Below are positions 1-10,752 of a stretch of DNA of 10,752 nt, piece by piece. The stretch comes from a virus. Its lineage: Duplodnaviria; Heunggongvirae; Uroviricota; Caudoviricetes. The stretch is from IMG/VR virus record IMGVR_UViG_2695420889_000008; one strand, written 5' to 3'. Both the position numbers and the translations under genes were made by a program. A model generated the notes under the pieces. The model was not told the DNA's origin, made no database searches, and worked only from the letters and a program-made list of their open reading frames with translations. Numbering within the stretch: position 1 is the first letter of the stretch; every line of letters starts with the position of its first letter.

Positions 1-102
1 AAAACTAATAGTGCCATGTGCAATTTTTAAGATTTTGTTATTAATTGTGGTCGCACCTTCCTTTCTGTGTACTTTCCGTATAGCTCACAGGATTCTGGGT
101 AC

Positions 103-125
103 AAAAAAACCCGCGCATCGGCGGG
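103..125 (-). terminator. Rho-independent terminator downstream of the Q-like gene (candidate tR'-like)
   Basis: On the minus strand: CCCGC-cgatgc-GCGGG hairpin (110-125) followed directly by T7 (plus-strand A-run 103-109). Lies ~110 nt past the stop of the last minus-strand gene. Confidence 0.6.
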
Positions 126-173
126 TTCTTAAATCTTATCAACGGTAGACATACAAAGCCCATCGTTGGGAAA

Positions 174-202
174 ATCTTATCCATATTTTTTGAAAAATGC
201 AA
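174..202 (-). promoter_or_regulatory. Candidate PR'-like late promoter
   Basis: Minus strand: -35 TTGCAT (197-202), 17-bp spacer, -10 TAAGAT (174-179). Would give a ~60-nt transcript ending at the 103-125 terminator, as for a Q-modifiable short late transcript. Position and motif only. Confidence 0.3.
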
Positions 203-233
203 GCATCATGTCGTCATCTTCGGCGAAAACCAT

Positions 234-986
234 TTATCTTGTCACCTTTCTCAATTGTATCTCTGCATATGCTTCTTCCTGCCAGCACTTTGTAACCAGT
301 TTATCAATGACATCTGCATATCCTTTGTACCACTGATAATCCGTCAGGTCTGGTACCAGCTTCTGGACATGAAGCCGCGCCAGTGTGGTTGGTAAACGGC
401 TAAACCGGTTTCCATTGCAACGCCCACAAACCTTATAAACAGGCGTGCCATGAAGCCGGGTTCTTTTTTCATCCAGGACAATACCTTTACCCTTGCACCC
501 TCTGCATGCTGTGCTGACTTCTCCCTTACCATGACAATGCTGACATAGTTCCTTCACCCACTCTTCCTTAATAACAGATTCCCCGCTTCTGGAGTGTTTC
601 ACCACCTCGCGCAATACATTATGAAATCCAGTACCAGCACAATGCTCACAGCGAGCCTTACTTGCCGCAGACCTGGAATAATCAGCAAAGGCAAAATTCA
701 CAAGGTAAGGAATGATCTGTAGCCGGGTTTCTTCACTCAATTTATTCAATGTCGGGTTATCCAGTGCCATCGCGTAATTGAGCAGACCTTCAATCGCAAA
801 CTGAGGATCCTGAACACCAACTTTTGCCAGGAATAAAGCAAACCCAAGCGTTGCTTTTGACTGCACCATCCCCTGCGCAGCCATCACATCCGTAATTGTT
901 AAACCACCAGAGCCTGTCGCCGGTGCGTCATCGCTCAGTTTTGGAGATTTCGGGGAGTAATATTTCGGTAAGGCTTCAAGGTTCAT
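234..986 (-). CDS. Putative late-gene antiterminator Q-like protein with four DnaJ-type CxxCxGxG zinc-finger repeats
   Basis: 250-aa ORF starting MNLEALPKYYSPK, with GGAG Shine-Dalgarno 7 nt upstream of the ATG at 984-986. Cys repeats RCEHCAGTG, CQHCHGKG, CRGCKGKG, CGRCNGN. Last gene of the rightward operon, immediately before a promoter plus terminator. Family assignment is from position and recollection, not a search. Confidence 0.5.
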   Translation of the reverse strand: MNLEALPKYYSPKSPKLSDDAPATGSGGLTITDVMAAQGMVQSKATLGFALFLAKVGVQDPQFAIEGLLNYAMALDNPTLNKLSEETRLQIIPYLVNFAFADYSRSAASKARCEHCAGTGFHNVLREVVKHSRSGESVIKEEWVKELCQHCHGKGEVSTACRGCKGKGIVLDEKRTRLHGTPVYKVCGRCNGNRFSRLPTTLARLHVQKLVPDLTDYQWYKGYADVIDKLVTKCWQEEAYAEIQLRKVTR

Positions 987-999
987 GCTCGTTCTCCAC

Positions 1000-1989
1000 T
1001 TACGCCAGTACGCCAATTGCCAGCGCACGATCGATAAAACGAAATATCAGCTCCAGCTGAGAGCCATACTTCTCTTCAAATGCCACGGTATCCGCATGCA
1101 GCTCGTCGTGATGCTTTCTGCACAAAGGCAACACAAAAAGGTCATGCGCTTTTGTACCCATTCCACACTGACCGTGGCCTATCAGGTGGTGGGGATCATC
1201 AGCGGGCTTTCCACAACATGCACACGGCTGTGTCTTAACCCAGCGCGTGTACTTTTCATTAACCCAGCGGCGACGTTTTGGGCGTAACATAAAAGACTCC
1301 GGCGACTCCGGATCCACTTTCAGCGCCAGCACCTTTTTCGCTTTATCCTGGATGATGCTGGTGGCAGGAACCGAAGGCACAAGGTCACTTTCCCGGGTGA
1401 CAGACGGCACAACAGGCTTCGGTAATCTCAGTGCCTTACGGGCTGCACTTTCCGGTAAGGCATCCGCCAGGTCATTACGAATCAGCCACCAGCACAGTTC
1501 CGGCATTGTCACAACGTGACTGTCATCAAAACCGAGATCCCGACGCACAACAGACAACACCCAGCGGGTACAGTTATCCGTTGCCATTGATTCCAGCCGT
1601 TCCGTGAACTGATCGCGCAGCTGGTTATCGCAGTGCCAGCACAGACGGATTGCGCCCGGCGTGTGTCGCATTGTGGTCATGTTCTCGCTGTGCCAGTCGG
1701 AATGAGGCCACTGGCAACCTTTTTCACGAAGTAACCAGCGTTCAAGACATTCCACTCCACCAGCACGACGAATCACTGCCTCATTGCGGAACACGGCCCG
1801 AACGGCAGGATCATCCGCCAGCGGTTGTGATGCCGCCGGAACGGCACCACTGGCGAAAGATGAATAACGTTCCGGCTCAGGCTCCAGCAGGACACGCCCC
1901 TGCATAAACAGGGGCATCAGCTCTGAACCGGGCCTGAACAATACGATCCCCATACGCGGGGCAATTTCAGGGGTCAGTAGCGCTCTCAC
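1000..1989 (-). CDS. Nin-region protein with C-terminal HNH-like Cys/His zinc-binding domain (possibly DUF968/NinG-like)
   Basis: ~329-aa ORF. C-terminus CACCGKPADDPHHLIGHG...LCRKHHDELH resembles a beta-beta-alpha-metal nuclease motif. Likely GTG start at 1987-1989 preceded by GAGG (the ORF track begins at 1995). Start is uncertain. Confidence 0.55.
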   Translation of the reverse strand: MRALLTPEIAPRMGIVLFRPGSELMPLFMQGRVLLEPEPERYSSFASGAVPAASQPLADDPAVRAVFRNEAVIRRAGGVECLERWLLREKGCQWPHSDWHSENMTTMRHTPGAIRLCWHCDNQLRDQFTERLESMATDNCTRWVLSVVRRDLGFDDSHVVTMPELCWWLIRNDLADALPESAARKALRLPKPVVPSVTRESDLVPSVPATSIIQDKAKKVLALKVDPESPESFMLRPKRRRWVNEKYTRWVKTQPCACCGKPADDPHHLIGHGQCGMGTKAHDLFVLPLCRKHHDELHADTVAFEEKYGSQLELIFRFIDRALAIGVLA

Positions 1990-1996
1990 GGTCACC

Positions 1997-2806
1997 TCAA
2001 TGAACGGTATCGAGCAGCTTTAACAGCTCAGGGAACCGGGATTCGAAGAAATGCGGCTGCGTCTCGCGCGGATTTGCGGGACTGGTGATGTTCTTGCCGA
2101 ACATGCAGCCTTTCGCCGTCAGCGACCAGAATTTTTTGATGTTGTTAATCGCAGTGCGGCTGTATCGTTCACGTTGTTCAACGATCCCCAGCTTCGCCAT
2201 CTGGTGATATGCCTGATTAGCTGTCAGGCGGATACCATACTGCTTCAGCAGTGCACTCAGTGACAGCGTGGGGCGGCTTGAGCCATCAGGCGCGTCAGCA
2301 GGAGCATCAATGGCATAGCGCGGTGCCAGATTCGGTAAGCCAACAGCCTCCTGGAGTTTCTGACAGGCACCAAGCACTGAAGAGTTAGACAGGTTTAACT
2401 CCCGGCGCATAAAGTCCAGCAGAATCACGCCAGCCTGCATCTTGTCAGCAGCCTGCCCGGATAATTTTTCCGATGCGCTGGTTACCATATCGAAAGTACG
2501 GATCACCTTCAGATGGAATGACGGGCTGATCCACATTGCATAGGCATACACCAGTTCTTTGCAGACATACGTCCCCTGGTTATTTCCGCCATTAATAACG
2601 CTAACTGGTTGATTCTTTTCCAGAGGCGGAATTCCACCCTCGGTGAAAAGTTGTTCAATCAATTCACAGGTTTGCTTATTGGAGAGCCAGTATTTCGGGC
2701 GTTTTTTTTGTTCTCCCCCGGCTGCCCTGTGCAGATCGTTCAGGCTGTAACGCCCATAAGCATCACGACGAACTTCAATACCATCAATGACCATCAGATT
2801 ATTCAT
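1997..2806 (-). CDS. KilA-N domain protein (antirepressor-like)
   Basis: 269-aa ORF. N-terminus MNNLMVIDGIEVRRDAYGRYSLNDLHRAAGG...KYWLSNKQTCELI...GTYVCKELVYAYAMWISPSFHLKVI matches the KilA-N/APSES-type pattern. GAGGAG Shine-Dalgarno 8 nt upstream. Confidence 0.7.
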   Translation of the reverse strand: MNNLMVIDGIEVRRDAYGRYSLNDLHRAAGGEQKKRPKYWLSNKQTCELIEQLFTEGGIPPLEKNQPVSVINGGNNQGTYVCKELVYAYAMWISPSFHLKVIRTFDMVTSASEKLSGQAADKMQAGVILLDFMRRELNLSNSSVLGACQKLQEAVGLPNLAPRYAIDAPADAPDGSSRPTLSLSALLKQYGIRLTANQAYHQMAKLGIVEQRERYSRTAINNIKKFWSLTAKGCMFGKNITSPANPRETQPHFFESRFPELLKLLDTVH

Positions 2807-2825
2807 ACTTCGTTTCTCCTCTTAA

Positions 2826-3215
2826 TCAGGCGGCTGCACCCGCCGGTTTCTCATACTTACTGATAGTGATCTCGACCTTCCCTTTCGGGATAACCGGTCC
2901 CCACTCCACCAGCATTCTTTTCACCTGGCTGTCGTCTTCCCACACACCCGCGTGGGTCAGGGCGTCAAACAGCGCCTTGTTATAGTTGTCCAGATCGCGG
3001 ATCCGGTTATCCGGAGGAAACAACACGATCTCCACTGAAGCAGGTGCCGACGTTGGTTTCGGCAGACGACGTAACTGCTCAACTATTGCTGCGCACGCCG
3101 CGCTCTGAAATTTTCGCCCCGCCTCGCTTATCAGGCTCTTACCAGCAAATGCCCCTTTGTTGGGGTGTCGCCAGTACGTGTTCACGCTGGGCGGGAAAGG
3201 CAGGATCAGCTTCAT
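2826..3215 (-). CDS. rusA: Holliday-junction resolvase RusA
   Basis: 129-aa ORF with RusA hallmarks: LPFPPSVNTYWRH and acidic catalytic cluster RIRDLDNYNKALFDALTHAGVWEDDSQV. ATGA overlap with the upstream gene. Confidence 0.85.
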   Translation of the reverse strand: MKLILPFPPSVNTYWRHPNKGAFAGKSLISEAGRKFQSAACAAIVEQLRRLPKPTSAPASVEIVLFPPDNRIRDLDNYNKALFDALTHAGVWEDDSQVKRMLVEWGPVIPKGKVEITISKYEKPAGAAA

Positions 3216-3538
3216 ACTTTCAGGCCTCTCTCATGTAACCAGTGAGTTGCACGCAGCCTTGCGTTTTCCTCACCGGCAAGCAGTGAGCGGATAATCCCGA
3301 CCGCCTCGCTGTCGTCGTCCTTCACCGCGGTATGAAGCGTGATCCCCCGGGCCACACCACGCTTTATCGTGATGACGCCTTTTTTCTCCAGTGCGCGAAG
3401 ATGCTCCACCGCTGCATTCACCGAACGGTATCCCAGCATGGTTGCCACCTCCTGATTGGTTGGCGGGAAGCCACGTTCTTTCTGATAAGAAATCAGCATA
3501 TCCAGCACCTGCTGCTGGCATTGAGTTAACGTCGTCAT
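3212..3538 (-). CDS. Orphan LexA-like N-terminal DNA-binding-domain protein (no S24 peptidase domain)
   Basis: 108-aa ORF. LTQCQQQVLDMLISYQKERGFPPTNQEVATMLGYRSVNAAVEHLRALEKKGVITIKRGVARGITL aligns by eye to the LexA winged-helix domain, including a near-identical recognition helix (SVNAAVEHLRAL vs LexA SPNAAEEHLKAL). No Ser/Lys peptidase domain. ATGA overlap with the Dam gene. Confidence 0.7.
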   Translation of the reverse strand: MTTLTQCQQQVLDMLISYQKERGFPPTNQEVATMLGYRSVNAAVEHLRALEKKGVITIKRGVARGITLHTAVKDDDSEAVGIIRSLLAGEENARLRATHWLHERGLKV

Positions 3539-4188
3539 GCCGCCATCTCCCTGACCAGTTTTTCCGCCTGCTGGCGAACCTGCGCCAGAAACGCCTCACC
3601 ACATGCCTCAAGTTCATCGCGCCCGATGTAGCTGATTGCCGGTCCCTTCCAGGTCTTGTCAAAAACAGCAATAGCACCAGCGAAAAAAGCTCCTGTCGGC
3701 ACCTGCTTCTCGTCCTTCGGGATAAACCAGGCAGGCAGTTCAAAACCAATACGCCCGCGAATAAAAGCAATATGGTCCGCATCTTCCGGCCACCACACTT
3801 CGCTGGTGGCAGCTTTGATCAGGAAAACATAGCGCCCGCCCTTATCACGCATGGAACTGGCATGTTTCATGATGTAACGCATGCCGGTGATGTATTGCCC
3901 CTCATGCTGACTGGCGCGGCTGTATGGGGGATTACCAAAGGCAGCACCTTTAAGCTCCGCAAGACGTTCTGACCAGTCATGCGCCAGCGCGTTATCTTCC
4001 GCCGTGTAATACGCGGCACATTTGGCGTTATCACCGTCAGTAAACAGATCCAGAACAAACGGGCCAAACAGGGTGTTAATTCCCCAGAAAATGTTGTCCG
4101 GCGTGCGCCACTGATCGCCCACTTCCTTCAGTTCATGGGCTGGTTTGTTCCGCAGTTCCACCAGCGCCTGGCAATATTTATTACTCAT
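3535..4188 (-). CDS. Phage Dam-type DNA N6-adenine methyltransferase
   Basis: Catalytic NPPY motif in FGNPPYSRA; N-terminus MSNKYCQALVELRNKPAHELKEVGDQWRTPDNIFW typical of phage Dam family. Start placed at ATG 4186-4188 (G-rich Shine-Dalgarno, 1-nt overlap with upstream stop) rather than the GTG at 4221. Confidence 0.75.
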   Translation of the reverse strand: MSNKYCQALVELRNKPAHELKEVGDQWRTPDNIFWGINTLFGPFVLDLFTDGDNAKCAAYYTAEDNALAHDWSERLAELKGAAFGNPPYSRASQHEGQYITGMRYIMKHASSMRDKGGRYVFLIKAATSEVWWPEDADHIAFIRGRIGFELPAWFIPKDEKQVPTGAFFAGAIAVFDKTWKGPAISYIGRDELEACGEAFLAQVRQQAEKLVREMAA

Positions 4189-4682
4189 TAAGCCCCCACG
4201 TAATTCCCTGACAGATACCACTCTTCACCCGATGCAGCGCGCTTGCTGCTTTTCCGTAAGCACCGCTCACGACGCGCCAGAAAATTGTTTCGTTCTGGCT
4301 GGGAGTGGCTTTCACGGAATGCCGCCATCCACACCGTTGCAGCACGACGGTATAAGCCCCTGGACTCCAGTTCTTCAGCCTGGCGGGTCAGGCACAAAAT
4401 CACCCGGGGGTCGTTAGTGCCGACATAGAAATTGCGCACAGGTCTGGTTTCACGAACTGGTTGCGGTTCCGATTCCTGCAAAACCTCAGTCTGGCGCGGG
4501 AAATGTCTGCGAGTATCCCCTTCACAACGGTGAGCCACACGCCCACTCTGACGTAACTTGCTTGCTGACTGCAGAACGCGCTGTCGTGAGTAACCTGCAA
4601 AAGCATCCGCAATGTCTCCGGAAGCACACCCCGGATGGGCTTCAATGAATTTCTGAACGTCATTTAACAGACTCATGATCAC
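4188..4682 (-). CDS. Hypothetical early protein with PerC-like C-terminal region
   Basis: 164-aa ORF; ATGA overlap with the O-like gene stop. Segment LESRGLYRRAATVWMAAF resembles the PerC-family core; recollection only. Confidence 0.5.
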   Translation of the reverse strand: MIMSLLNDVQKFIEAHPGCASGDIADAFAGYSRQRVLQSASKLRQSGRVAHRCEGDTRRHFPRQTEVLQESEPQPVRETRPVRNFYVGTNDPRVILCLTRQAEELESRGLYRRAATVWMAAFRESHSQPERNNFLARRERCLRKSSKRAASGEEWYLSGNYVGA

Positions 4683-5497
4683 CCCCTGAATCCTGCCGGG
4701 ATCTGGCTGTAGTCCACGTTGTCGTAACTGGCTTTGAAGTACGGGTCATCGCGTCTGGCTGCAGATACCGCAGGAACTTCCCAGGATTCTTCGAAATGAC
4801 GATCCGGACCAAAGAACGTGACAGCCTGTTTCACAAATTGTGTGCCGCTATTGCCCATCGCAGATACCCAGCCCGCGTAGCGTTTCACACCTTCCAGCAT
4901 GGTTTCGGGGTTTACCCCCTCGTTCAAACGGGCTTTCCAGGCTTTGAAGGCTGCTGATTTTGAATTGCCACCAGCACGTTTGGGGTATGCCAGCCATGCC
5001 TGCTCAAACTCCGGAGAGTATTCCGGTCGGTTTGAACGAACTCGCACAGACTCATCAGCAGATGCACCAACAGCTATTGGTTCATTGACTGGTTCTTTGA
5101 CTGGTTCAAAAGAGTGACTGGTTCTGGGTGAATCTCCTGCACTACCCCCTGGTGCAACTCCTGCACTACCTGGTGAATTTGCTGCACCAGATAGTGAATT
5201 ATTTGCACTACCCCCTAGTGAATCTCCTGCACCATCCAGATGAAGGAGATAGATATTACTTGAGTTACCTTTTTCACCTTTCCGGGTGACTTTTTTTACC
5301 AGCCCGGACTCACAAAGGGCCGCAATATGATTCATCACAGAACGTTTGCTAATCTCGCACTGGTCAGCAATATGCTGGTAGCTGGGCCAGCACTCACCCT
5401 GATCGCTGGCATTATCAGCCAGCTTGATCAGAACCAGTTTTCGCAATGGATTACCCACTCGAATTTTCATCGCTTTAACCATCAGCTCCATACTCAT
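4679..5497 (-). CDS. Replication initiator / replisome organiser (lambda O-like) with internal iterons
   Basis: 272-aa ORF. N-terminus KIRVGNPLRKLVLIKLADNASDQGECWPSYQHIADQCEISKRSVMNHIAALCESGLVKK is a winged-helix replisome-organiser type. Central low-complexity linker (GGSANNSLSGAANSPGSAGVAPGGSAGDSP) is encoded by direct DNA repeats. ATGA overlap with the upstream gene. Confidence 0.7.
   Translation of the reverse strand: MSMELMVKAMKIRVGNPLRKLVLIKLADNASDQGECWPSYQHIADQCEISKRSVMNHIAALCESGLVKKVTRKGEKGNSSNIYLLHLDGAGDSLGGSANNSLSGAANSPGSAGVAPGGSAGDSPRTSHSFEPVKEPVNEPIAVGASADESVRVRSNRPEYSPEFEQAWLAYPKRAGGNSKSAAFKAWKARLNEGVNPETMLEGVKRYAGWVSAMGNSGTQFVKQAVTFFGPDRHFEESWEVPAVSAARRDDPYFKASYDNVDYSQIPAGFRG
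5086..5237. repeat. Direct-repeat (iteron-like) array inside the O-like gene; candidate replication origin
   Basis: Five ~21-24-bp tandem units with core GTGAAT(C/T)T(C/G)CTGCAC at 5128-5237, and three copies of TGACTGGTTC at 5086-5124, all read on the plus strand. Confidence 0.6.
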
Positions 5498-5718
5498 GCT
5501 GCACCTCCGAGATGCTTCATGTTTTTTCCGGAGCGAAAGGCTATGAGCGGCATACTGACGCGGTAATTACGACCCAGCGGTTCACAAATCACCTTCTGAC
5601 ATTCACGGTCAACCAGGCTAACACGTAGAACATGCCCTGCAGGCGTGGTGTACCACTGACCCGGGCGAGGACAACGGAAAGTTTGATTGGTAAACCGTTT
5701 GAAAATATTTCGGATCAT
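5494..5718 (-). CDS. Hypothetical small protein (74 aa)
   Basis: ORF bracketed by ATGA overlaps on both sides (5715-5718 and 5494-5497), which argues for translation; no recognisable motif. Confidence 0.45.
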   Translation of the reverse strand: MIRNIFKRFTNQTFRCPRPGQWYTTPAGHVLRVSLVDRECQKVICEPLGRNYRVSMPLIAFRSGKNMKHLGGAA

Positions 5719-6866
5719 TTGCGCCCCCTTACCTCTGAAGAGTTCAGCGACGAATGAATAAGACGGGCAAGAAATGCCGCATCGTTAATTCGGTCATACA
5801 GACTTACAGCCAGCGGTGATTCAGCTTTTTCCAGCATGGGATAAAGCTGCTGCAACCAGACCTGATGAATTGATGAAATGTAGGAATAGAGAACGCTGGC
5901 GTTATGTGCAACGTCACTCGGTACAGCGAGCTTTGAAAGCTGTTTCTCCATCTGGTTAAAGGCATTGATGTATGCCTCTTTGAACTGGGCAGCACGTTTA
6001 CCCGTGAAACCCATAGCAAGAAACGCAAAGCCGTCGCGGGTTATTTGATAGCAAGGTAGTTTGCGGCCTGTGCAATCGGTGTAATCACTCACCGAAAAAT
6101 TGCGGGCAGTGAATGATGCGGAGCATTCAAGCGTGCGGATCTTTTTCAGAACATCGTCATGACGTTTGGAGAAGAAGTTGGCAACAGCCAGGGATGAAGT
6201 AACAGCCTGACCATCAACGATGGCAATTTCGGGTTGAGTGAGGGTTGGGATCGTAGCCATGATGGCAGCCTCTTTGGTGATTTTTAATAACTCACCACCA
6301 AGGCTTTCCACGACCTTATTGGTGGTGAGACGTACAGGGGTGGAAATACCGGTCACCAAAGAACCCGGCCCAACCGAAGTTGGCCCTGCACGCCCCACCA
6401 TAATTTGGGCGTAATGCTGCTCATGACACAAAAAAACCGCAAGAGCGCGGTTGTGCGCTTTGGTGAATTCCGGGTTTCCACGCCCGGCACCCGCTTTATA
6501 AGGTGCCTGAACAGTGTAACGTCCCGGAATGGCAGAATCAATGTGCTGGTGGTCCTTCACACTCAACAAAATCACGCCTGAATTTCCACAAAGGACTAAA
6601 GCACTCATGCGGGTAGTCTTTGCGAAGATAGATAACGCGCTGTGTTTCTGGCTCCCAACGAATAACATGGACATAAAGCCCTCTTCCGTCACGAAACCAG
6701 CGGTTAAGTTCCTGCACAACTCGCCCCCCACAGTCAGGTAAAGTTCTCTGTGGTTACTTACAGCCAGGTGATTTGGTAATCTGCATTCATGCCGTAACAA
6801 CAGGTGTTCAGCGACACTGACCACCAGCTGTTGCGACAAACGGTTATTTGCCGTTAAACTGTTCAT
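5715..6866 (-). CDS. Rha-family phage regulatory protein, C-terminal 181 aa, with ~200-aa in-frame N-terminal extension of unknown function
   Basis: Rha signature VTSSLAVANFFSKRHDDVLKKIRTL...ITRDGFAFLAMGFTGKRAAQFKEAYINAFNQME lies in the C-terminal half. The open frame runs 383 codons from an ATG (6864-6866) that overlaps the CII-like stop (ATGA). A second start at 6258-6260 has an AGAGG Shine-Dalgarno and would give a stand-alone Rha protein (5715-6260). Which start is used is unresolved. Confidence 0.55.
   Translation of the reverse strand: MNSLTANNRLSQQLVVSVAEHLLLRHECRLPNHLAVSNHRELYLTVGGELCRNLTAGFVTEEGFMSMLFVGSQKHSALSIFAKTTRMSALVLCGNSGVILLSVKDHQHIDSAIPGRYTVQAPYKAGAGRGNPEFTKAHNRALAVFLCHEQHYAQIMVGRAGPTSVGPGSLVTGISTPVRLTTNKVVESLGGELLKITKEAAIMATIPTLTQPEIAIVDGQAVTSSLAVANFFSKRHDDVLKKIRTLECSASFTARNFSVSDYTDCTGRKLPCYQITRDGFAFLAMGFTGKRAAQFKEAYINAFNQMEKQLSKLAVPSDVAHNASVLYSYISSIHQVWLQQLYPMLEKAESPLAVSLYDRINDAAFLARLIHSSLNSSEVRGRK
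6430..6452 (-). terminator. Intragenic terminator-like hairpin inside the N-terminal extension of the Rha ORF
   Basis: Minus strand: ACCGC-gctctt-GCGGT followed by T6-7. Short stem, so weak. Confidence 0.3.
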
Positions 6867-7426
6867 GCGTTAGTTTCTCCACAGACACAAAACGCCACGA
6901 CGCCCGGAGCTGCACACTCGCGGGCGTCACTCTTTTCTGGAGCGCAAAAGATTTTGTAGACCAGTGCTGCATGCTCCTGGAGCTTCGAAATTGACAGATA
7001 CAACTCATCATTAATTGCTGTCTGCTCGTGTGGCTCCACGACCCCATCTTCGATTGCCGAACGAATCTGCTTTGAGTAATTCCCGATCTGTTCGATGACT
7101 TCCAGCAGGCGCTGGTTTATATCGGCGTTCTCTACTTCCTCAATTTCAGGAAGCGATACGAACACCCCACCAGCAGACTGTGCGACAGCATCCGCAATGT
7201 AGTGAGTGCCAGCCGCGCGCTGTAAAACCATTGCCCATCCCAGCGGGAAAATCTGATCGCCATCGGCACGAAGGCGGTTAAATAATGCGTTCTCTGTTAC
7301 ATCCAGCCAGTCAGCTGCTTCAGCGTAACCACCCGGCAACGCTGCGATAGTTTTTCTGACAGCTTTCACGTACCACTCAGGCTGTTTTTCTACTTTCCAG
7401 TGATACTTACCCACGGTTAGCCTCAT
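6863..7426 (-). CDS. CII-like early regulatory protein (tentative)
   Basis: 187-aa ORF immediately downstream of the Cro-like gene, stop overlapping the next start. Family guess is from position and recollection only; weak Shine-Dalgarno. Confidence 0.4.
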   Translation of the reverse strand: MRLTVGKYHWKVEKQPEWYVKAVRKTIAALPGGYAEAADWLDVTENALFNRLRADGDQIFPLGWAMVLQRAAGTHYIADAVAQSAGGVFVSLPEIEEVENADINQRLLEVIEQIGNYSKQIRSAIEDGVVEPHEQTAINDELYLSISKLQEHAALVYKIFCAPEKSDARECAAPGVVAFCVCGETNA

Positions 7427-7457
7427 CGTTCTGTGGTTAAAAATTGAAGGTGTTCTG

Positions 7458-7658
7458 TTAATCTTTCGGATAGATATCCGGTCTTAAGTCAGATTTCGTA
7501 ATTGCACCTGACGTGCATTGCTCAAGTTTTTTAGCCAGCACAAAACTGGCTTTTTTATAACCATTGAAAACCAGCCGTAAGTAGCCTGGTGTTGAGCCAA
7601 CTTTTCCGGCCAACTCGCCCTGCTGTTCTTTGGTTAAAGAGTCCCAATACGCTTTCAT
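7458..7658 (-). CDS. Cro-like HTH repressor
   Basis: 66-aa ORF starting MKAYWDSLTKEQQGELAGKVG, with GGAGG Shine-Dalgarno 10 nt upstream. Divergent from the CI-like gene across an operator-rich spacer. The ORF-track start at 7682 has no Shine-Dalgarno and was rejected. Confidence 0.6.
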   Translation of the reverse strand: MKAYWDSLTKEQQGELAGKVGSTPGYLRLVFNGYKKASFVLAKKLEQCTSGAITKSDLRPDIYPKD

Positions 7659-7664
7659 ACAATA

Positions 7665-7731
7665 TGTACCTCCAATATACATATTACATGATTAATATGA
7701 ACCTTCAAGATACTTGTACCTTATCGGTACA
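7665..7731. promoter_or_regulatory. OR-like operator region between the divergent Cro-like and CI-like genes
   Basis: Two 17-bp sites: TGTACC-tccaa-TATACA (7665-7681) and TGTACC-ttatc-GGTACA (7715-7731). Candidate leaderless PRM: TTGTAC (7714-7719), 17-bp spacer, TTTAAT (7737-7742), start near the cI ATG at 7749. Candidate PR on the minus strand: TTGAAG (7703-7708) and TAATAT (7681-7686). Confidence 0.5.
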
Positions 7732-7748
7732 AAGGTTTTAATTTCTTT

Positions 7749-8423
7749 ATGAAAACAGTCCATGACATCCGGCGGTCTAACGCCAGAAAACTGAGAGATG
7801 GTGTTGGCGGGAATTCTTCCTTTGCCACCATGATTGATCGCGAGCCAACCCAGACCAGCAGGTTTATGGGAGATGGTGCTACTAAAAATATCGGTGACAG
7901 CATGGCACGGCACATCGAAAAATGTTTCGACCTGCCTGTCGGATGGCTTGATCAAGAACACCAGACCACGAACATCACAAAAAAACCTGATGTTTCAATC
8001 ACTAACAAACAAATAACGTTAGTCCCTGTCATATCATGGGTACAGGCCGGAGCATGGAAAGAAGTTGGCTATTCTGAGGTTGATTTGAGCACAGCAGAAA
8101 CTTATCCCTGCCCTGTACCCTGTGGCGAAATGACTTATATCTTGCGGGTGATTGGTGATTCAATGATTGATGAGTACCGCCCGGGAGACATGATTTTTGT
8201 TGATCCCGAAGTCCCTGCCTGCCACGGTGACGACGTTATTGCATTGATGCACGATACAGGCGAAACCACCTTCAAGCGATTGATAGAAGATGGAACACAG
8301 CGTTATCTCAAAGCATTAAACCCAAACTGGCCTGAGCCTTACATTAAGATTAACGGTAATTGCTCTATAATTGGTACAGTAATTTTCTCAGGAAAACCAA
8401 GAAGATACAAAATAAAGGCCTAA
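7749..8423 (+). CDS. CI/DicA-type prophage repressor with LexA-like S24 autopeptidase domain
   Basis: 224-aa ORF. C-terminal domain has the S24 motifs GDSM (catalytic Ser), GDMIFVD and TFKRL (catalytic Lys). N-terminal domain ends in the VGWLD motif typical of C2/CI-type DNA-binding domains. Confidence 0.85.
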   Translation: MKTVHDIRRSNARKLRDGVGGNSSFATMIDREPTQTSRFMGDGATKNIGDSMARHIEKCFDLPVGWLDQEHQTTNITKKPDVSITNKQITLVPVISWVQAGAWKEVGYSEVDLSTAETYPCPVPCGEMTYILRVIGDSMIDEYRPGDMIFVDPEVPACHGDDVIALMHDTGETTFKRLIEDGTQRYLKALNPNWPEPYIKINGNCSIIGTVIFSGKPRRYKIKA

Positions 8424-8434
8424 TCAATATTTAT

Positions 8435-8457
8435 AACCTGCTTCGGCAGGTTTTTTT
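8435..8457 (+). terminator. Rho-independent terminator after the repressor gene
   Basis: AACCTGC-ttcg-GCAGGTT hairpin followed by T7, 12 nt after the cI stop. Confidence 0.75.
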
Positions 8458-8461
8458 ATAC

Positions 8462-8494
8462 TTGACAATGTACCCACAAGATACATAATGTATC
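8462..8494 (+). promoter_or_regulatory. PL/PdicB-like repressor-controlled promoter with embedded operator
   Basis: -35 TTGACA (8462-8467), 16-bp spacer, -10 CATAAT (8484-8489). Operator-like TGTACC-cacaa-GATACA (8469-8485) fills the spacer; the 15-bp perfect palindrome GATACATAATGTATC (8480-8494) overlaps the -10. Confidence 0.6.
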
Positions 8495-8892
8495 TAAAAG
8501 AAACATGCCGCAGGCAAGATTAAACAAAATTTGGTTGTAACACGGCGTATGGCACATGCGTCGTTAGCGGTCTGGGGACGTTAAAGGGGACAATCCACTC
8601 CTTGCTCGGGCAAAAAAACCAGGTAGCCGGAATGTGCAAGTCAATGATGATGCTGATAAGACGCCTAACCAGCGCGGCGATCCGGTTTGACGCCTGGGAA
8701 GAGACCAGGGTGCAACGATGAGGGCATTTATGGAACCGCGACAAAGTGTGGTGCCGTAACTGGCTAAGTGCTCTCAGCGTTGTGGTAATCCGCGAAATGG
8801 CGCGGCGGTAAGTATGGCGGGGTTACTCTTTCCCCGTTGAGGACACCGGATTGTCAGGTTGACCATACGCCTGAGTGACAACCCCACCACAA

Positions 8893-8952
8893 CAGCCACT
8901 GCTTTGGCGGTACCAGTTTGTACACTTGCTTCCGGCTGGTACCGCTCTTTTT
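8893..8952 (+). ncRNA. dicF: DicF-like small RNA with intrinsic terminator (tentative)
   Basis: TTTGGCGGTACCAGTTTGTAC matches the remembered E. coli Qin DicF core GTTTGGCGGTATCAGTTTTAC at 19 of 22 positions. It sits in an 11-bp-stem hairpin (GGCGGTACCAG 8906-8916 / CTGGTACCGCT 8936-8946) followed by TCTTTTT. Context matches dicA - promoter - leader - dicF. Compared from memory, not by search. Confidence 0.45.
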
Positions 8953-9041
8953 ACAAAACAGAGAAGAGCATCACCGGACGACGGGCTCATAACCCAATCC
9001 AGCCGGGCGGCTGCCACCGCAGGTGTTCTTCTCTGTTTTGT
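8953..9041 (+). other. Large RNA hairpin (17-bp stem) in the leader just upstream of the first left-operon gene
   Basis: ACAAAACAGAGAAGAGC (8953-8969) pairs with GTTCTTCTCTGTTTTGT (9025-9041) with one G-U wobble. The 55-nt loop holds two small hairpins (CAGCC-gggc-GGCTG, CACC-gca-GGTG). Candidate RNase III or regulatory element. Confidence 0.45.
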
Positions 9042-9089
9042 GGAGAAACCAACCGACCTTGCAGGGTCGATATGATGAGGAGCAGCAAA

Positions 9090-9452
9090 ATGGCTAGCGA
9101 ACGCAGTACTGATGTGCAGGCATTTATCGGGGAGCTGGACGGCGGCGTATTTGAAACCAAAATCGGCGCTGTTCTCAGTGAAGTCGCTTCCGGTGTGATG
9201 AACACGAAAACCAAAGGTAAGGTCTCGCTCAACCTGGAAATCGAACCGTTTGATGAGAACCGTGTGAAAATCAAACACAAACTCTCATATGTTCGCCCGA
9301 CTAACCGCGGGAAAATTTCCGAAGAAGACACCACCGAAACGCCGATGTATGTCAATCGCGGTGGTCGCCTGACTATTCTGCAGGAAGACCAGGGACAATT
9401 ACTGACTCTTGCCGGTGAACCTGACGGAAAACTCCGCGCAGCAGGTAATTAA
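9090..9452 (+). CDS. Hypothetical 120-aa early left-operon protein (YfdP-like by recollection)
   Basis: ORF starting MASERSTDVQAF with GAGGAG Shine-Dalgarno 7 nt upstream; in-frame ATGs at 9072 and 9075 lack a Shine-Dalgarno. Function unknown. Confidence 0.6.
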   Translation: MASERSTDVQAFIGELDGGVFETKIGAVLSEVASGVMNTKTKGKVSLNLEIEPFDENRVKIKHKLSYVRPTNRGKISEEDTTETPMYVNRGGRLTILQEDQGQLLTLAGEPDGKLRAAGN

Positions 9453-9517
9453 TATCGTTCTTAATTAACCGATTATTTATCTCATCACTGAATATCTTTA
9501 TATAGTGAGGACTTATT

Positions 9518-10342
9518 ATGTCTCAGAACTTAGACGCAACCGCAATTAATCAAATTCATGCCCTTATTTCTGCTCAGGGTGTTAATGAAATTATCAGTAA
9601 GATTGGTGCCGATGCTGTGGCATTGCCTGAGAATTTCCGCATTCATGATCTGGAAAAATTTAATTTAAATCGCTTCCGTTTCCGTGGTGCACTTTCGACT
9701 GCCAGCATCGATGATTTTACCCGTTATTCTAAAGATCTTGCAGATGAAGGCACCCGCTGCTTTATCGACGCCGATAATATGCGTGCCGTCAGTGTACTTA
9801 ACCTGGGTACTATCGATGAACCAGGTCACGCAGATAACACCGCCACTCTCAAACTGAAAAAGACAGCACCGTTCTCTGCCCTGTTGTCTGTTAACGGCGA
9901 GCGTAACTCCCAGAAGTCACTGGCAGAATGGATTGAAGACTGGGCCGACTACCTTGTGGGCTTTGATGCTAATGGTGACGCCATTCAGGCAACAAAAGCG
10001 GCTGCGGCTGTCCGTAAAATCACGATTGAAGCAAACCAGACCGCTGATTTTGAAGATAATGACTTCAGCGGCAAACGCTCCCTGATGGAGTCTGTCGAAG
10101 CGAAGACCAAAGACATTATGCCAGTGGCATGTGAATTTAAATGCGTTCCGTTTGAAGGCCTGAAAGAACGTCCGTTTAAATTACGCCTCAGCATTATCAC
10201 TGGCGATCGTCCTGTACTGGTTCTGCGCATTATTCAGCTGGAAGCAGTGCAGGAAGAAATGGCTAACGAATTTCGTGATCTGCTTGTTGAGAAATTCAAA
10301 GACAGCAAAGTAGAAACTTTTATTGGTACTTTCACCGCCTGA
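9518..10342 (+). CDS. Hypothetical 274-aa protein (YfdQ-like, DUF2303-type by recollection)
   Basis: Clean ORF with GAGGA Shine-Dalgarno 8 nt upstream, AT-richer than the flanking DNA, followed by a hairpin. Family name is from memory only. Confidence 0.65.
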
Positions 10343-10354
10343 TTTCATTACTGC

Positions 10355-10380
10355 AAATGCCCCTGCGGGGGCATTTATGG
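10355..10380 (+). terminator. Terminator/attenuator-like hairpin after the 274-aa gene
   Basis: AAATGCCCC-tgcg-GGGGCATTT 9-bp GC-rich stem followed by a weak T-tract (TTTATGG). Confidence 0.4.
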
Positions 10381-10470
10381 AAACGTAATTAACTCAATAA
10401 TCGCCGGATGGTGCGGGATTCCTTTTACCCGAATTCAGCGCGGTGCAGCGCATATAAAGTGGAGAACGAA

Positions 10471-10626
10471 ATGTCATTTATTAAAACTTTTTCCGGGAAG
10501 CATTTTTATTATGACAAGATAAATAAAGATGACATCGTTATTAACGATATCGCGGTTTCCCTTTCAAATATGTGTCGCTTTGCCGGCCATCTTTCACACT
10601 TCTACAGCGTCGCCCAACATGCGGTG
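10471..10626 (+). pseudogene. HD-domain phosphohydrolase-like gene (YfdR-like), truncated after 52 codons by IS insertion
   Basis: GGAG Shine-Dalgarno then MSFIKTFSGKHFYYDKINKDDIVINDIAVSLSNMCRFAGHLSHFYSVAQHAV. Reading frame ends at TGA 10627-10629, which is the first triplet of the IS terminal repeat, before any HD motif. Confidence 0.55.
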
Positions 10627-10752
10627 TGAGGTGTACTGGCAATAGCGGACACTACCATTTGTTCTTTTTTTAAGCAGCCATCTGATGATATTTTTCCCTG
10701 AAGGCTGCCGGGGAGATATTCCCCAGACGAGAGTGACGACGCTGACGATTGT
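10627..10752 (-). mobile_element. IS3-family insertion sequence, terminal end, continuing beyond the window
   Basis: Terminal sequence TGAGGTGTACTGGCAATAGCGGACAC resembles the remembered IS3 inverted repeat TGATCTTACCCAGCAATAGTGGACAC (shared TGA...GCAATAG.GGACAC). Transposase stop lies 38 bp inside the end, as in IS3-family right ends. Confidence 0.65.
10670..10750 (-). CDS. IS3-family transposase OrfB, C-terminal fragment (partial)
   Basis: Minus-strand translation ...NRQRRHSRLGNISPAAFREKYHQMAA* has the RxHSxLGxxSPxxF-type C-terminal signature of IS3-family transposases. The 5' part is outside the window. Confidence 0.65.
   Translation of the reverse strand, partial: NRQRRHSRLGNISPAAFREKYHQMAA

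Follow-up and report, generated by a model that had tools for sequence, protein, structure and literature searches.

The window analysed here, the whole stretch of 10,752 nt, ends in a prophage gene, yfdR, that is broken after codon 52 by the right end of an IS600 element, and it very probably records the ordinary transposition of an IS600 copy into codon 52/53 of that gene. Both halves of the junction are identical to known DNA, the point at which one gives way to the other is exact, and the reading frame is cut off before the HD dyad. The event is an ordinary one, already known in kind, an IS600-disrupted yfdR being annotated at a neighbouring site in O145:H28 reference genomes. The locus should thus be annotated as an IS-disrupted yfdR pseudogene.

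The junction between yfdR and IS600

Read directly, the yfdR frame begins at ATG 10471-10473, with GGAG upstream at 10461-10464, and runs for 52 sense codons to 10626 (MSFIKTFSGKHFYYDKINKDDIVINDIAVSLSNMCRFAGHLSHFYSVAQHAV; MSFIKTF...SVAQHAV). It ends in a TGA that is at the same time the opening triplet of the IS terminal repeat (5'-TGAGGTGTACTGG...). The first-pass annotation of this DNA had the HD-like frame stopping after 52 codons at exactly this triplet, and its coordinates and codon count are correct; it was also right in having an HD-hydrolase gene cut short by an IS3-family element ahead of the HD dyad, the element being IS600, the gene yfdR and the dyad residues 69-70, beyond the break.

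On the left of the junction, 10400-10626 match the start of intact E. coli O111:H11 yfdR at 100%, with identity breaking exactly at 10626, and the gene fragment itself is identical over 156/156 nt to the yfdR of NZ_CP077567. A mechanically compiled list of open reading frames takes the frame back to an earlier ATG, at 10408; the resulting 73-aa ORF was rejected, since it is unrecorded and annotated intact homologues start at the equivalent of ATG 10471.

On the right, 10622-10752 show 131/131 identity to the ends of copies annotated as 'IS3-like element IS600 family transposase', found at ~6,200 places in 2,909 complete E. coli genomes, and 10627-10752 match over 126/126 nt the reverse complement of nt 1139-1264, the last 126 nt, of IS600 in O145:H28 RM13514. 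The full element in that genome is 1,264 bp long, from TGAGGTAGCC... to ...GTACACCTCA, and has an orfA with HTH_Tnp_1, a 272-aa orfB with rve/rve_3 integrase-core domains and an annotated programmed frameshift; in the family definition orfA and orfB are joined by a -1 programmed frameshift, and the window covers 26 codons of orfB only. The termini have the TG...CA form, with TGAGGTG at 10627 in the window and, in the full RM13514 copy, TGAGGTAG at the start and CACCTCA at the end. The left and right repeats have in common the terminal TGAGGT and an internal CGGACACT. IS600 was first described in Shigella sonnei.

Table 1. Features of the yfdR/IS600 junction and its operon, in window coordinates, with other insertions in yfdR in gene coordinates
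Feature	Position	Strand	Basis or remark
Terminator-like hairpin after the S24 repressor gene	8435-8452		
pL-like promoter candidate, TTGACA-16-CATAAT	8462..8489	+	Consensus scan, 11/12 matches; would drive yfdP-yfdQ-yfdR
Operator-like 20-nt repeat (family D1) in the promoter spacer	8468-8487		Common to 7664-7683 and 7697-7716 in the cI/cro intergenic region
yfdP	9090..9452	+	RefSeq annotation of identical DNA; precomputed Pfam YfdP match
yfdQ (DUF2303), directly upstream of yfdR, same operon	9518..10342	+	Pfam E = 4.6e-91; RefSeq annotation of identical DNA
9-bp GC-rich hairpin between yfdQ and yfdR, AAATGCCCC-TGCG-GGGGCATTT	10355..10376	+	Centroid fold -15.8 kcal/mol, z = -3.0
yfdR 5' fragment, codons 1-52 of 178	10471..10626	+	100% identity to intact yfdR nt 1-156 (P0135 translation)
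GTG, predicted left copy of the 3-bp target duplication	10624..10626		By analogy with IS600 duplications ATG and AGC elsewhere in yfdR
TGA stop, first three bases of the IS600 terminal repeat	10627..10629	+	Direct reading; alignment with the RM13514 IS600 right end
IS600 (IS3 family) right end, 126 nt before the contig end	10627..10752	-	Transposase on the minus strand, element pointing leftwards
Imperfect IRR of IS600, TGAGGTGTACTGGCAATAGCGGACACTACC	10627..10655		By-eye comparison with the left repeat TGAGGTAGCCTGAGTTTAACGGACACTCC of the full RM13514 copy
IS600 orfB, last 26 codons and TAA, ending ...NRQRRHSRLGNISPAAFREKYHQMAA	10670..10750	-	Identical to the C-terminus of the full copy's 272-aa orfB
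(a) IS600 in O145:H28 RM13514 and RM12581	yfdR nt 101-103		Duplication ATG; opposite orientation to the window copy
(b) IS600 in SRR7540830 and SRR15228792, same yfdR allele	yfdR nt 167-169		Duplication AGC; same direction as yfdR; both junctions seen
(c) IS629 in O121:H19 genomes	yfdR nt 154-157 (window-equivalent 10624-10627)		Duplication GTTC; same direction as yfdR

The end of the contig and the missing 3' partner

The window corresponds to draft contig JXVT01000073.1 (GCA_000948785.1) in its entirety. The contig ends 126 nt into a multicopy repeat, as short-read contigs commonly do; it stops there because the assembler could not cross the IS repeat. What looks like the end of an operon is thus an assembly break at a repeat and no biological boundary. 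The Logan assembly of read set SRR1783851, an independent one, has the identical junction, in a contig that ends 30 nt into the IS, together with the matching 52-aa ORF. The junction is therefore real and no chimeric contig end.

The same junction was absent from the collections of complete DNA that we searched. When 10400-10752 was run by megablast against 5,426 complete E. coli genomes, the yfdR matches stopped at query position 227 (10626) and none covered at least 80% of the query; in phage records the junction was likewise absent, phage and genome matches all stopping at 10625/10626. An exact-match scan of species-representative genomes was empty for the 45-nt junction, as expected of a set in which E. 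coli has a single genome.

The other side of the element was sought through its protein products. Searching by homology with the C-terminal 126 aa brought up many fragments, and the predicted junction was in none of them; the 127-aa ORF expected at a simple 3' junction (GTG start; M or V as first residue) is absent from a collection of 15 billion proteins. A 111-aa ORF, starting at the ATG of M68 in the same allele, is recorded in two Logan contigs only, and the readable one is a different IS600 insertion. Given this missing 3' partner, the event may include a deletion or rearrangement flanking the IS rather than being a clean insertion.

The intact gene and the fragment that remains

Intact yfdR comprises 537 nt and encodes 178 aa, and its natural end is not at codon 52. 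Comparison with uninterrupted homologues, which the first-pass annotation had proposed as a check, thus agrees with truncation: a copy of at least 80% of the gene is present in 2,954 of the 2,976 E. coli records with yfdR (~99%). Draft assemblies contain many YfdR entries of 33-53 aa marked 'partial', and in the 52-aa set that was examined (P0137) the genes run off contig ends and are not truncated. Partials of 52 aa in 54 contigs of another allele were considered as the same insertion and rejected, since these genes run off contig ends with no IS after them.

Against Pfam, the intact 178-aa YfdR falls just under both relevant cut-offs (YfbR-like, 24.4 bits with a cut-off of 25.9; HD_3, 16.8 with a cut-off of 22.5), and it is far from reaching the equivalog cut-off of NCBIfam for YfbR. 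Among solved structures, its nearest relative is that of the HD protein Atu1052 (2gz4, E = 1.4e-12). The YfdR of the K-12 cryptic prophage CPS-53 is described as a structural homologue of YfbR, a 5'-nucleotidase; it has an HD domain, its nucleotide affinities are much lower, and it binds DnaA (PMC4776307). Overexpression of yfdQRST inhibits replication initiation, and deletion of yfdQRST is without effect on replication control in K-12 (PMC4776307).

Of the metal-binding residues H...HD...D, the stub encodes H50 alone. This residue (VAQH) is the first conserved His of the HD fold, and the stop precedes both the HD dyad (ALMHDATE/LMHDATE, residues 69-70) and the Asp residues that come later. 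The earlier statement that the frame ends before any HD motif thus holds for the dyad but not for this first histidine. Searched against the Pfam and NCBIfam models, the 52-aa stub gave zero matches. It is a gene fragment and not a functional member of the HD family; without the dyad and everything downstream of it, it must be null for phosphohydrolase, and DnaA binding is probably also lost.

In other prophages, YfdR is joined at one identical point, residue ~79, directly before IPAPLKRLL, to six N-terminal sequences that are unrelated to one another (P0015, P0017, P0020, P0022, P0023, P0024). This hints at a boundary of recombination or mosaicism that recurs within yfdR.

The prophage and its probable early-left operon

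Among complete E. coli genomes, window positions 1-10626 are 100% identical only to the prophage of O145:H28 RM13514 and RM12581, so that the source is probably closely related to that lineage; the window is ~97-99% identical to SfV, Stx2c and O26 prophages. The minus strand carries, in order, a Q-like antiterminator, DUF968, KilA-N, RusA, Dam, PerC, replication and Rha genes and a cro-like gene, and the plus strand an S24 cI-like repressor (7749-8423), yfdP, yfdQ and the truncated yfdR.

These plus-strand genes had been described in the first-pass annotation as a cargo operon with yfdR at its end. The candidate promoter is near-consensus and contains an operator-like repeat of the cI/cro type (Table 1), which points to an early-left operon instead of a cargo operon expressed in lysogeny. 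The arrangement appears to be that of a lambdoid pL region, with the putative promoter past the repressor gene, operator-like repeats as in the cI/cro region and the genes on the repressor strand, and we infer that yfdP-yfdQ-yfdR form the repressor-controlled early-left (pL) operon of a lambdoid, SfV/CPS-53-like prophage. Nor is yfdR, the third gene of this operon, its last. Intact or near-identical relatives have four to five more genes downstream of yfdR. The ORF that comes next overlaps it, and the same strand goes on to carry genes for a SAM-dependent methyltransferase and a 3'-5' exonuclease and a PrtN-like gene.

Several further elements of this region deserve mention in their own right. 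The hairpin between yfdQ and yfdR adjoins the yfdQ stop, has no T-run and was not among the terminators called; it may act in partial termination or in mRNA stability. The ~600 nt that separate yfdP from the pL-like promoter (8490-9089) contain no annotated gene and no Rfam match, and this leader could contain a nut-/put-like site or a small ORF. Two Rfam families score above the gathering threshold on the minus strand, a C4 antisense RNA at 6318-6405 (83.6 bits) and the Hfq-binding RNA isrK at 6430-6506 (67 bits), and both fall within a 383-aa minus-strand ORF (5715-6866) annotated as a Rha-family regulatory protein. Either coding sequence here contains sRNA genes or the 383-aa ORF is over-called. 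Finally, the annotation of this prophage in RM13514, and in the closest complete genomes, has no integrase at the left end. Prophage decay, which had been offered as one meaning of the insertion, fits this absence, which concerns DNA outside the window, and is plausible only as context.

A model for the insertion and its likely effects

In the model that we favour, IS600, an IS3-family element of 1,264 bp with an orfA/orfB frameshift and a DDE/rve transposase, would insert into yfdR and make a 3-bp target duplication, predicted to be GTG. The element sits antiparallel to yfdR, and its right terminal repeat (5'-TGAGG...) supplies an in-frame TGA directly after Val52. For a simple insertion, the left end of IS600 would then join GTG-CTTTGCAGCC, from yfdR nt 154 onwards, and the predicted right junction reads ...AACTCAGGCTACCTCA-GTG-CTTTGCAGCCAGC (also written ...GTTAAACTCAGGCTACCTCA/GTG/CTTTGCAGCCAGCTGG), so that the 3' part of the gene would be expected beyond the IS.

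To reach the downstream early genes, transcripts started at the pL-like promoter would need to run through 1.26 kb of antisense IS, and polarity on these genes is likely. The insertion had also been thought to provide an outward promoter or terminator; this idea finds no backing, in that a consensus scan of both strands of 10627-10752 gave neither a promoter-like nor a terminator-like site and the yfdR/IS junction has no stable RNA fold across it (z = +1.4 versus shuffled sequence). Furthermore, the IS has its right end turned towards yfdR, and thus any outward signal would be antisense to yfdR/yfdQ rather than driving downstream genes.

The early-left operon is probably silent in the lysogen. 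This, together with the lack of a K-12 phenotype for the yfdQRST deletion, suggests that the insertion is most likely neutral, one more IS movement in a STEC background rich in IS600. The alternative put forward earlier, selection against the gene, sits poorly with the ~99% of carriers in which yfdR is intact. In O145:H28, IS600 and IS629 outnumber all other ISs (PMC3893438), and both are amplified in major STEC serotypes including O121:H19, which also carry the IS-excision enhancer (PMC9397093). The significance of a single further case is therefore small, since IS600/IS629 are already known to spread through STEC prophages and yfdR is dispensable in K-12.

Other insertions in yfdR

A stretch of 69 bp in yfdR (nt 101-169, window-equivalent 10571-10639) has been hit independently by IS600 three times and by IS629 once in STEC lineages, the window's own insertion among them (Table 1; record coordinates L002 16570-17839, L005 1-40, L027 1840-1881, L028 3150-3190 and 4455-4475). 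At the site hit in RM13514 the window has no interruption, and its insertion and that of RM13514 are therefore independent. Derivation of the window arrangement from that of RM13514 by inversion or adjacent deletion was rejected, since the window is intact at that site and its IS is reversed; moreover, an inversion would adjoin inverted yfdR to the IS. For event (b), a 58-aa product was predicted from the 3' junction and then found with its DNA. The reading of (b) as a deletion derivative of (a) was rejected in turn, since this 58-aa 5' product and its DNA exist with a clean AGC duplication. The GTTC duplication of the IS629 copy overlaps the window junction after nt 156.

This survey is biased, in that only protein fragments ending or starting before codon 68 were examined. 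Other breaks in yfdR lie at nt 11 (IS66), 77-86 (IS1, deletion), 146 (IS630-family), 180 and 197-204 (IS21), and the 3' half also shows frameshifts and fusions. In other E. coli, yfdR is broken by an IS630-family element followed by the BREX genes brxA and brxR (L014 2640-3733), or by an IS21-type istA/istB element (L015 340-2836); these cases show that yfdR is a frequent casualty in prophage remnants. In RM13514 the IS600 insertion creates a 191-aa ORF (L002 17699-18274) that runs from the IS 3' end via the right repeat into the 3' part of yfdR, a potential IS-yfdR fusion.

Alternative explanations

We consider here how far the data permit readings other than ordinary transposition. An assembly artefact, in which a chimeric join through a short shared k-mer puts an IS end beside a yfdR that is intact in the strain, might come to mind for a feature at the very end of a short-read contig whose junction is in no complete genome; it is most improbable, however, given that the break falls exactly at the IS terminal TG and is followed by 126 nt of perfect IS, that flank and IS end have no long k-mer in common, and that Logan assemblies reproduce both the junction and the 52-aa ORF. 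Rather more weight attaches to an IS600-associated deletion or rearrangement, whether by flanking loss promoted by the excision enhancer (IEE) or by recombination between IS600 copies, in which case the strain would lack the 3' two-thirds of yfdR, possibly along with early genes downstream of it, or have them elsewhere. Neither predicted 3'-fragment ORF could be tied to the source assembly or read sets, related genomes hold 9-23 IS600 copies each, and IEE-carrying STEC, including O145:H28, generate deletions adjoining IS3-family elements (PMC9397093). On the other hand, absence from a protein index is weak evidence, as not being on record proves no absence, and at two other sites of this allele IS600 inserted cleanly, with 3-bp duplications. 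We thus regard such a deletion as a possible but unlikely addition to the history of the locus.

The insertion could also belong to a recurrent series rather than being random. In this case, the ~70-bp stretch of yfdR covering codons 34-57 (nt 100-170) would be a hotspot for the IS3-family elements IS600 and IS629, either because local DNA features make it a preferred target of their transposases or because inactivation of yfdR, a DnaA-binding early gene, is selected in STEC prophages and is of benefit to the lysogen. Independent IS600 copies at nt 101-103, after nt 156 and at nt 167-169, all three within the same 100%-identical yfdR allele, argue for this, as do the IS629 copy that overlaps the window site and the inhibition of replication initiation by overexpressed yfdQRST (PMC4776307). 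The independent hits thus number at least four, and a pair of them has its staggered cut at the same position. However, ascertainment favours fragments that end or start before codon 68; breaks elsewhere in the gene arise through IS66, IS1, IS630-family and IS21 elements and deletions, with frameshifts and fusions in the 3' half; the target sites have no obvious consensus; ~99% of E. coli yfdR records keep a copy of at least 80%; and in lysogens the operon is probably repressed, which gives selection little purchase. A hotspot therefore seems rather doubtful to us. If the clustering were to hold in an unbiased survey, the stretch would be a natural target for work on IS3-family transposase site choice and a lineage marker for O145:H28-like strains. 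Ordinary transposition of IS600 into yfdR is the reading that we retain for the comparisons below.

Comparison with known systems

Compared with IS600 itself, the window shows 100% identity over its final 126 nt, including the terminal TGAGGT...CGGACACT repeat and the orfB C-terminus. Unlike the full element, the window has a single end, the frameshift region, the left repeat and the second copy of the duplication lying beyond the contig.

The K-12 prophage CPS-53 has the gene order yfdP-yfdQ-yfdR in common with the window. Its yfdR shows 95.7% DNA identity over 537 nt to the O111:H11 allele, which the window reproduces at nt 1-156. Whereas CPS-53 YfdR is described as an HD-domain 5'-deoxynucleotidase that binds DnaA, the window encodes residues 1-52 only, and neither activity is expected of them.

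In O121:H19, an IS600 insertion in lacZ is reversible through the IS-excision enhancer (PMC9397093). There too the same IS inactivates a gene in a STEC background that typically carries iee, and excision could in principle restore yfdR; in contrast to lacZ::IS600, no phenotype is known for the yfdR insertion.

O121:H19 also provides the case closest in position. In its genomes (e.g. CP022407) an IS3-family element lies at an overlapping position in yfdR, and the stub ends at residue 53 followed by an IS-encoded tail. The element there is IS629/IS1203, on the other hand, in a yfdR allele that is ~95% identical, in the opposite orientation and in a different prophage.

The nearest precedent in kind is that of O145:H28 RM13514 and RM12581, in which the two annotated pseudogenes (ECRM13514_RS35625 and RS25975) have the same prophage, the same gene, the same IS and the same outcome, a truncated HD hydrolase. 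The insertion in these genomes differs from that of the window in lying 53 bp upstream, with its ATG duplication at window-equivalent 10571-10573, and in its opposite orientation, and the two thus stand as separate arrivals of IS600 in one and the same prophage gene.
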